8,961 nt of DNA from the IMG/VR virus record IMGVR_UViG_2548876934_000005; one strand, 5' to 3'. Positions 7,546 to 8,961 of this stretch are shown here, in pieces. Position numbers and translations under genes: made by a program. This stretch comes from a virus (lineage: Duplodnaviria; Heunggongvirae; Uroviricota; Caudoviricetes). Positions within the stretch are counted from its first letter, which is position 1, and the number at the start of each line of letters is the position of its first letter. A model generated the notes under the pieces. That model worked only from the letters and a program-made list of their open reading frames with translations. It did not search any database and was not told the DNA's origin.

Positions 7546-7713
7546 ATGCACTTCCGAGTCACAGGAGAATGGAATGGAGAGCCATTCGACAGGGTTATCG
7601 AAGCAGAGGACATCAACGACTGCTATAACCACTGGATGATATGGGCGCAGATAGCGCATGCAGACGTAACCAATATTCGAATTGAAGAACTGAAAGAACA
7701 CCAAACCGCCTGA
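7546..7713 (+). CDS. Small hypothetical protein (55 aa), positionally equivalent to the short ORF preceding torI in K-12 KplE1
   Basis: Absent from the supplied ORF track, presumably because of its length. ATG at 7546 with GGAG 8 nt upstream; translation MHFRVTGEWNGEPFDRVIEAEDINDCYNHWMIWAQIAHADVTNIRIEELKEHQTA. The TGA stop lies in the loop of a strong terminator. My memory that this resembles K-12 ypdJ is unverified. Confidence 0.45.
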   Translation: MHFRVTGEWNGEPFDRVIEAEDINDCYNHWMIWAQIAHADVTNIRIEELKEHQTA

Positions 7714-7726
7714 TGGCGGTTTTTTA
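7704..7726 (+). terminator. Rho-independent terminator: stem AACCGCC / GGCGGTT, loop TGAT, T-run TTTTTT
   Basis: Perfect 7-bp stem with 4-nt loop followed by T-run, seen directly. The stop codon of the 7546 ORF sits in the loop. Confidence 0.75.
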
Positions 7727-7735
7727 TTACCTGAT

Positions 7736-7751
7736 TTGCAGGTTCGATTCC
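7736..7751 (+). repeat. tRNA-like fragment TTGCAGGTTCGATTCC, identical to the T-arm of argW (1054-1069), upstream of torI
   Basis: Exact 16-nt match to the argW T-stem/T-loop region but lacking the acceptor 3' end. About 300 bp upstream of the attR core. Confidence 0.4.
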
Positions 7752-7770
7752 CTATTCGGAGATAGCACTC

Positions 7771-7971
7771 ATGCAACACGAACTACAGCCTGATTCCCTG
7801 GTTGATTTGAAATTCATCATGGCTGATACTGGCTTTGGTAAAACCTTCATCTACGACCGGATTAAGTCCGGCGACCTGCCAAAAGCCAAAGTTATCCACG
7901 GACGAGCAAGATGGTTATATCGTGACCATTGTGAATTCAAAAATAAGCTCTTAAGCCGCGCCAATGGGTAA
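7771..7971 (+). CDS. torI: TorI-like excisionase / recombination directionality factor (winged-helix; Tor response-regulator inhibitor)
   Basis: 66-aa ORF, GGAG 9 nt upstream of the ATG. The translation MQHELQPDSLVDLKFIMADTGFGKTFIYDRIKSGDLPKAKVIHGRARWLYRDHCEFKNKLLSRANG matches my recollection of E. coli TorI. It lies just inside attR, as in K-12 KplE1. Confidence 0.85.
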   Translation: MQHELQPDSLVDLKFIMADTGFGKTFIYDRIKSGDLPKAKVIHGRARWLYRDHCEFKNKLLSRANG

Positions 7972-8044
7972 AATAGCGGGTAAAATATTCCTCACATCTA
8001 AAAAACACCATTCCAATCAATCCCCTGCCACCTCAAGTAGATGT

Positions 8045-8060
8045 CTGCAGGGGACACCAT
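8045..8060 (+). repeat. attR core: second copy of the 16-bp repeat CTGCAGGGGACACCAT
   Basis: Exact identity with 1069-1084. Flanking sequence is unrelated to the tRNA body, as expected for attR. Confidence 0.8.
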
Positions 8061-8183
8061 CCCGCCGTACACTAACGTCTACCATTGTCTATAAACCCCA
8101 TGTAACCATATAAAAATAAAGAGATTTTATTCTCATGACGTCCATTGCCGTCTATTGAAATCAAGTAAATCTATGGGGCATAA

Positions 8184-8222
8184 TTGGGGGCATTGCTGGT
8201 TCGATTGTAAATGTGCCCCCAA
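8184..8222 (+). repeat. 9-bp perfect inverted repeat TTGGGGGCA (8184-8192) / TGCCCCCAA (8214-8222) with 21-nt spacer, ending 1 nt before the 8224 integrase start codon
   Basis: Arms are exact reverse complements. An extra direct GGGGCAT copy lies at 8175-8181. The spacer contains a tRNA T-loop-like GGTTCGATT. Confidence 0.5.
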
Positions 8223-8223
8223 T

Positions 8224-8961
8224 ATGTCCAGAAATACCCTCAACAAATTAACAGACCGTCAGTGCAAAGCAGCTAAGCCACGAGACAAAACTTATAAATT
8301 GTCTGATGGTGGTGGTCTTTATCTTGAAGTATCCCAGACCGGGTCGAAGTATTGGCGAATGAAGTATCGCCGCCCATCAGATAAGAAAGAAGACAGACTT
8401 GCTTTTGGTGTATATCCAACCATTAGCTTACAAGACGCCAGAGAAAAACGAGACAACGCCAAAAAGTTGTTAGTCAAGGGGATAGATCCCAAAGCAGAGC
8501 AAAGAGCAGCAAAAGCAGAAGAAAAAGGTGCATTCACTTTTGAGACAATAGGACGTCAATGGGTTGAAAGCCACCAGATGTGGAACGAAGCCCACCGAAA
8601 ACGCGTACTTAGAAGCCTTGAAATGTATATTTTCCCTCACATTGGCACTTCGGATATTCGCAAACTGGAGGCGATGACAATTTTACCTTTGTTTAAGAAG
8701 GTAGATGACGCCGGGAAACACGATACAGCCAACCGACTTAAACAACGAGTTAAGGACATCATACATAGCGCCCGTCTGAGCGGCATTAAGACAGAAATCA
8801 TCACGAATGATCTCGATGTCCGGTTAATGCAATATGAAACTAAGCATCATGCCGCACTACATCCCAGAGATTTACCAGACTTTTTCACTCGATTGGGCAG
8901 CTTTAAAGGTAATCCTCTTACCCGCCTTGCCATTGAGCTAACCATGTTGACCTTTGGGTAA
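8224..8961 (+). CDS. Second P4-type tyrosine integrase, N-terminal (arm-binding/core-binding) region only; catalytic domain absent, likely truncated or pseudogene
   Basis: First strong in-frame ATG at 8224 (track ORF from a TTG at 8155; another ATG at 8173). N-terminus LSDGGGLYLEV...YWRMKYRRP parallels the 1245 integrase (LLDGNGLYLYV...WQLRYK). The ORF stops at TAA 8959-8961 after about 245 aa, where full-length homologues continue into the R-H-R-Y catalytic domain. Confidence 0.7.
   Translation: MSRNTLNKLTDRQCKAAKPRDKTYKLSDGGGLYLEVSQTGSKYWRMKYRRPSDKKEDRLAFGVYPTISLQDAREKRDNAKKLLVKGIDPKAEQRAAKAEEKGAFTFETIGRQWVESHQMWNEAHRKRVLRSLEMYIFPHIGTSDIRKLEAMTILPLFKKVDDAGKHDTANRLKQRVKDIIHSARLSGIKTEIITNDLDVRLMQYETKHHAALHPRDLPDFFTRLGSFKGNPLTRLAIELTMLTFG

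Follow-up and report, generated by a model that had tools for sequence, protein, structure and literature searches.

The attP arm repeats and the int promoter of phage P4 are reportedly the subject of papers by Pierson and Kahn (1987) and by Piazzolla et al. (2006). The P4 GenBank records (X05947; X51522 / NC_001609) label two 12-mers in direct orientation, TTGGGGGCATAA and TTGGGGGCATCT, and a third on the opposite strand, ATGTGCCCCCAA, which overlaps the annotated int start, as "attP arm sequence repeat", and they annotate two further copies in the other attP arm. According to the summary of Piazzolla et al. (2006) given in PMC2951348, P4 Int binds DNA close to the start of int transcription and thereby represses its own promoter, and int is repressed in addition by Vis, the RDF of P4, which may act by binding the mRNA; Vis binds attP DNA as well (PMC2603039). 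A high-affinity IHF site has been reported in the P4 int regulatory region (PMC7286903).

Two other systems bear comparison. At argW, intS of KplE1 (CPS-53) follows a like logic, its promoter lying inside attL and being repressed by the integrase and the RDF on the recombination sites (Panis et al., 2010, PMC2951348). The arm-type sites of lambda attP (P1, P2 and P'1-P'3) are likewise short repeats in both arms, far from the core, and it is the N-terminal domain of a heterobivalent tyrosine integrase that recognizes them; their sequence, however, is unrelated, and those in the int-proximal arm are all direct repeats and do not double as an operator of the int promoter.

We analyzed a stretch of 8,961 nucleotides, referred to below as the window, in which GGGGCA repeats precede an integrase gene. 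The region is the known P4 module of attP arm repeats and Pint, carried by a new, decayed P4-family island at argW.

Two tandem elements at argW

The window corresponds to the E. coli argW locus and contains, in order, yfdC, a tRNA-Arg(CCT) gene at 1009-1083 (the sole tRNA found in the window by ARAGORN), intS, a KplE1/CPS-53-like prophage remnant, and a second island. The remnant (KplE1 sequence at 1084-2402 and 7771-8060) opens with intS, and at its 3' end are torI (7771-7971) and, repeating 16 nt of the 3' end of tRNA-Arg, CTGCAGGGGACACCAT at 8045-8060 on the plus strand, which was recognized from a repeat family pairing 1064-1084 with 8040-8060. This repeat is both the attR core of the KplE1-like prophage and the remainder of the attL core of the second island; in strains without the intervening prophage, its position is occupied by the 3' end of the tRNA.

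The second element extends from 8061 onward, and its integrase begins at 8224. In strains M171-1 and B20105, an identical 163 bp and the same integrase lie directly 3' of argW. The left arm of the second island is thus 8061-8223, and the insertion of KplE1 between this island and the tRNA came later. This segment (plus strand, 163 bp from core to ATG) is, from the strain comparison and from alignment with P4 attP, the int-proximal arm of the island's attL, i.e., a P4-type attP arm. The locus bears two tandem elements, a KplE1-like one next to the tRNA and an older, decayed P4-family island inside it. The two differ in integrase lineage and in site sequences, and the GGGGCA repeats are outside KplE1, whose attR core lies to their left. 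With the arm and integrase gene (8061-8961) as query, matches were found in 238 of 5426 complete E. coli genomes.

For the other end of the island we used the closest genome (L001), which is 100% identical to the window over 7600-8956. Two direct arm units, CTGGGGGCACCT and ACTGGGGCACCC, occur there at 20861-20884, with 49 bp separating them from the 24-nt repeat of the 3' end of tRNA-Arg that follows at 20934-20957; in the window, the first arm repeat (R1, below) is 111 bp from the tRNA-derived core. The corresponding spacings in P4 are 53 and 112 bp. With two repeats at the other end of the island and P4-like spacings, the whole P4 attP layout is reproduced. In most homologous loci with a flanking tRNA, about 163-168 nt separate the end of the tRNA from the int ATG. 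At its left end (the 8037-8060 region of the window), core identity of the inner island extends over 16 nt, as against 24 nt at its right end, because the insertion of KplE1 shortened the attL core.

Some minor features of the KplE1 remnant may be recorded here. The remnant of L001 carries an IS421 insertion that is absent from the window. At 7736-7751, 20 nt upstream of the torI start codon, there is an exact 16-nt copy of the tRNA-Arg T arm (TTGCAGGTTCGATTCC; compare 1054-1069). Over 7680-8061 the window and the free phages HK620, Sf6 and Kapi1 share about 97% identity; if the 16-mer is kept in these phages, it is phage-borne and not a scar of local recombination. On the minus strand, 7694-7821 gives a weak Rfam match, below threshold (29.3 bits, the gathering score being 55; E = 0.035), to the enterobacterial sRNA STnc130, which covers a terminator-like hairpin at about 7700-7725 and the torI start.

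Arm repeats and promoter before the integrase gene

A repeat finder returned a perfect inverted repeat directly upstream of the integrase reading frame, ATTGGGGGCA at 8183-8192 and TGCCCCCAAT at 8214-8223, with 10-nt arms that are 100% complementary and 21 nt between them. A preliminary description of this sequence had reported perfect 9-bp arms with a 21-nt spacer; these (8184-8192 and 8214-8222) are nested inside the 10-bp arms, and the description was also correct in noting an upstream direct copy of the motif and in placing the structure directly before the ATG at 8224. Direct copies of GGGGCAT lie at 8175-8181 and 8187-8193, 12 bp apart, TGCCCCC lies at 8214-8220, and the spacer contains the T-loop-like sequence GGTTCGATT at 8198-8206. 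By itself, the inverted repeat is not significant, at least one perfect 10-bp inverted repeat with a spacer of 3-30 nt being present in 22.5% of dinucleotide shuffles of the window. GGGGCA is not enriched over the window as a whole (5 copies, 3.1 expected). Three GGGGCA/TGCCCC motifs inside 50 bp were found in none of 1000 shuffles.

When phage records were searched for distant DNA similarity, the sole match was phage P4; a literature search for GGGGCAT together with integrase found nothing relevant. The motif had initially been thought to match nothing known, which was wrong, since it matches the annotated P4 attP arm repeats. From that annotation and the alignment, three units can be assigned. 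R1, TATGGGGCATAA (8172-8183, plus strand), is equivalent to the first P4 12-mer and R2, TTGGGGGCATTG (8184-8195, plus strand), to the second, each agreeing with its P4 counterpart at 10 of 12 positions; R2 is also the left arm of the inverted repeat and spans the predicted transcription start. R3 (8211-8222, minus strand) is inverted, and its plus-strand sequence is exactly that of the third P4 12-mer; it supplies the right arm of the inverted repeat, with a single nucleotide between its end and the int ATG. The interval between R2 and R3 (8196-8210, plus strand) contains a TTCGA(TT) at 8200-8206 that is conserved in the alignment of homologs. P4 shares the order and orientation of the units (two direct, one inverted), the 12-bp phasing of R1 and R2, the 21-nt spacer, and the TTCGATT within it.

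The promoter elements agree as well. The int promoter hexamers annotated in X05947, GTTGAAA (-35) and CATAAT (-10), align with 8155-8160 and 8179-8184 of the window. Independently of this alignment, a promoter scan picked out the same positions on the plus strand, with TTGAAA at 8155-8160 and CATAAT at 8179-8184 separated by 18 nt and with 10 of 12 consensus matches. The predicted promoter is equivalent to P4 Pint, and its hexamers have the same positions relative to the repeats as in P4; the -10 hexamer, identical to that annotated in P4, overlaps R1. The -35 position is occupied by TTGCAA or TTGAAA in 67 of 77 unique homologous loci, and the ATAAT of the -10 region is invariant or almost so across 34 aligned homologs.

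The gene that follows (8224-8961, plus strand) was assigned from its Pfam domains and from comparison with P4 Int to the P4 family of tyrosine integrases, and is truncated to 245 codons. A full-length allele, as in strain B20105, encodes 428 residues with the domains Arm-DNA-bind_3, Phage_int_M and Phage_integrase. The product in the window retains the arm-binding domain (Arm-DNA-bind_3, PF13356, 3e-29) and the central domain (Phage_int_M, 4e-19) and has lost the catalytic domain, no Phage_integrase match being obtained. The island integrase and P4 Int have the same arm-binding domain and are 58% identical over 411 residues.

Of the features that characterize P4-type arm repeats, the following were found for this island: 12-bp units with a GGGGCA core, two direct and one inverted, repeats in the other arm (as read in L001), a tRNA-derived core, and a P4-family integrase with an arm-binding domain; as in Pint, sigma-70 hexamers at the P4 positions are overlapped by the repeats. 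There are also differences. The target of the island is argW (tRNA-Arg CCT), whereas that of P4 is leuX. A sixth repeat, present within the coding region in P4, is absent from the argW island. The genes listed for the island in L001 include no P4 satellite genes, and in the window the integrase is truncated too. The ATG inside R3 is in frame and is the annotated int start in P4, whereas in the window it is out of frame and opens a 21-codon ORF (8211-8276) that overlaps the int start. The idea that this ATG imposes a coding constraint on R3 was rejected because its frame relative to int varies among homologs (12, 13 or 14 nt).

The preliminary description had made its reading depend on conservation of the palindrome upstream of homologous integrases. 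We collected 80 homologous integrase loci, one genome per species (Xenorhabdus, Photorhabdus, Serratia, Dickeya, Pectobacterium, Erwinia, Pantoea, Citrobacter, Klebsiella, Morganella, Yersinia and others), most of them with integrases 55-59% identical to the query and two with integrases 97-100% identical. The three-repeat layout, two direct units and one inverted, was present upstream of all 80 and in P4. The order of the blocks in these loci is a -35 hexamer, GGGGCATAAT, two variable bases, GGGGCA, a spacer with TTC(G/T)A, TGCCCC, 4-9 nt rich in A, and ATG; in most of these loci, and in the window, no Shine-Dalgarno sequence is apparent. Among 48 unique R1-R3 segments (from the 80 loci, three E. 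coli strains, P4 and the window), the R2-R3 spacer is 21 nt, with a range of 20-22. The GGGCA core is the only invariant part of the three units. Where a tRNA flanks the element it is Leu(CAA), Leu(TAA), Phe or Arg(CCT), i.e., four target tRNA genes. In IMG/VR, 65 contigs match the three-repeat pattern exactly, and the N-terminus of a P4-type Int follows in 62 of the 63 that could be assessed. The locus of Serratia oryzae (L010, about 1420-1460) has three tandem direct arm repeats, each with the GGGGCATAAT block and two variable bases, rather than two.

Two further pairs of short direct repeats occupy the same arm, both on the plus strand and both with a 10-bp periodicity. The first is a pair of GTCT (8077 and 8087; 8077-8090), and of 77 unique homologous loci, 43 and 31 have GTC[CT] at the respective fixed positions; the second is GTCC/GTCT (8140 and 8150; 8140-8153), conserved in 70 and 64 of the 77, and ends 1 bp before the -35 hexamer. 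The background for GTC[CT] among the same 77 loci is 2.3 per position. We considered whether these GTCY repeats were the arm-type sites and GGGGCA something else, and dropped this because the P4 annotation is attached to the GGGGCA 12-mers.

Readings of the repeats

The reading that we favor, to which we would give a probability of about 0.87, is that the region is the int-proximal arm of a P4-type attachment site, in which the three arm repeats would be Int sites that double as the operator of int. That Int binds the repeats we infer from the way in which the P4 records are annotated, from a secondary citation and from domain homology. R1 and R3 change together among the segments to the same degree as R2 and R3, as would be expected of sites read by one protein. 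By homology, the N-terminal arm-binding domain of the integrase would bind the three repeats while assembling the recombination complex. Since R1 overlaps the -10 hexamer, R2 spans the predicted start and R3 precedes the start codon, Int bound there would also silence its own promoter, and such shut-off would represent negative autoregulation of the kind reported for P4. The preliminary description had offered an operator for integrase autoregulation as one possibility; homology lends this support, in that P4-type arm repeats overlap a P4-type int promoter and autorepression is reported for P4, and in the argW island the repression of the promoter by bound Int is likewise a presumption by analogy.

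Assignment of the repeats to Int as arm sites and operator leaves the conserved spacer TTCGA and the GTCY pairs unaccounted for. The GTCY pairs are candidate sites for an RDF (Vis/AlpA) or another accessory protein and, lying in the same arm as the GGGGCA units, could be where one of the proteins truly binds. A strict IHF consensus (WATCAR-N4-TTR, both strands) had no match in the arm of the window or in P4, and the spacer TTC(G/T)A does not fit that consensus. It is conceivable, although we consider it improbable, that the invariant geometry shared throughout the P4 integrase family (the 21-nt spacer, TTCGA, the lack of a Shine-Dalgarno sequence, and an R3 that stands 1-6 nt before the start) marks a further, undescribed control, such as a site for a third factor or an RDF, or an RNA element in read-through transcripts from an upstream tRNA or a tandem prophage such as KplE1/torI, and, separately, that truncated arm-binding integrases persist as repressors of related incoming elements.

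We consider it unlikely that the inverted repeat functions at the RNA level, as a hairpin in the int 5' leader that would limit translation or stabilize or terminate the transcript, and to which an RNA-binding RDF such as P4 Vis might bind. The GC-rich stem does end 1 nt before the AUG of a gene that has no Shine-Dalgarno sequence, and post-transcriptional control of P4 int is reported in the summary given in PMC2951348, where Vis is suggested to bind the int mRNA. A read-through RNA containing 8184-8223 folds at -18.1 kcal/mol, and with flanks at -29.4 kcal/mol (z = -2.5). No terminator-like site was found between torI and int, so that read-through from KplE1 is conceivable. The abstract of the 2006 study by Piazzolla and colleagues is said to agree with post-transcriptional control of P4 int and with Vis acting on int mRNA.

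Against this, the conserved -10 hexamer overlaps R1, so that the predicted transcript would start (at about 8190-8192) within the left arm of the inverted repeat. The leader from the predicted start is less structured than shuffled sequence (-5.6 kcal/mol, z = +1.15), and on folding the hairpin formed only in RNA beginning upstream of that start. Outside the core, three outer stem pairs are unpaired in 13-23 of 34 homologs each. Among the 34 diverse sequences, the R2:R3 pairing has one pair with changes on both sides and a covariation score of 0.069, whereas for the pairing R1:R3, which served as a control since it is impossible as an RNA helix if the -10 overlaps R1, the figures are three such pairs and a score of 0.121. 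Because the control covaries more, the covariation reflects the co-evolution of repeats that are sites for one protein, and not a helix. An Rfam search gave no family match at the repeats, the best local matches being microRNA models (E 0.5-0.9). The structured 5' leader envisaged in the preliminary description is not supported by these results.

Also put forward there was a binding site for a TorI-like RDF. More generally, the repeats might be sites for an RDF instead of the integrase, either TorI of KplE1 or an AlpA/Vis-like protein of the island itself. The direct repeats to which RDFs bind usually recur at about one helical turn, and the phasing of R1 and R2 is 12 bp; as noted above, Vis of P4 both represses int and binds attP, and intact copies of the island encode an AlpA-family protein. 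Nevertheless we regard an RDF site as very unlikely. TorI belongs to KplE1, whereas the motif stays with the integrase of the second island where that island abuts argW with no adjoining KplE1/TorI, is also found in P4, and accompanies the integrase across elements whose neighbors differ. Arm-type Int sites characteristically occur in both arms and in inverted orientation, as these repeats do, and no AlpA gene is listed for the copy of the island annotated in L001. A likelier place for an RDF to bind is the GTCY pairs, whose direct repeats are 10 bp apart.

That the region is what remains of a decayed tRNA gene, or of an att core from an earlier integration, can be dismissed as extremely unlikely. 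Although 8193-8208 is identical to the tRNA-Arg T arm at 13 of 16 positions and a 7-bp acceptor stem could be imitated by the GGGGGCA/TGCCCCC arms, there is no T stem, since the sequences on either side of TTCGATT do not pair, and the identical block occurs in elements at four different tRNA genes and in free phage P4. The likeness to a T loop and acceptor minihelix lies in GGTTCGATT being flanked at a distance by a GC-rich inverted repeat of 7-10 bp. The T-loop-like sequence noted in the preliminary description is indeed in the spacer, but the likeness is superficial, TTC[GT]A being kept in 34 of 34 aligned homologs whatever the target tRNA. Since the same block is found at four target tRNAs, TTCGATT is part of the element itself rather than a scar left by the local tRNA. 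A tRNA or tmRNA remnant was also rejected on the grounds that ARAGORN and Rfam (E up to 10) find none there and that the T-arm likeness is common to elements at other tRNAs.

A decayed island and its integrase

Taking the repeats as arm sites and operator of a P4-type integrase, those in the window are probably relics, because the integrase is a pseudogene, the attL core has been cut from 24 to 16 nt, and the island copy in L001 lists no AlpA gene. At most, a retained N-terminal fragment of Int could still occupy them. As the GGGGCA repeats are the long-known arm repeats of P4 integrase, the observation is real but ordinary. The signature GGGCATAAT-NN-GGGGCA-N(18-24)-TGCCC directly 5' of an ATG is highly specific for the int-proximal arm and promoter of the P4 family, and could be used to delimit P4-like islands and to fix the start codons of their integrases; beyond correct annotation, its importance is small.

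The integrase ends at codon 245 because the sequence diverges from all other copies after 8956. The final 5 nt of the window, GGTAA (8957-8961), differ from every other E. coli copy of the gene and create the stop. The terminal repeat of IS1 begins GGTAATG, and 8957-8961 may possibly be the start of an insertion. In L001 the integrase carries a different truncation, to 258 residues.
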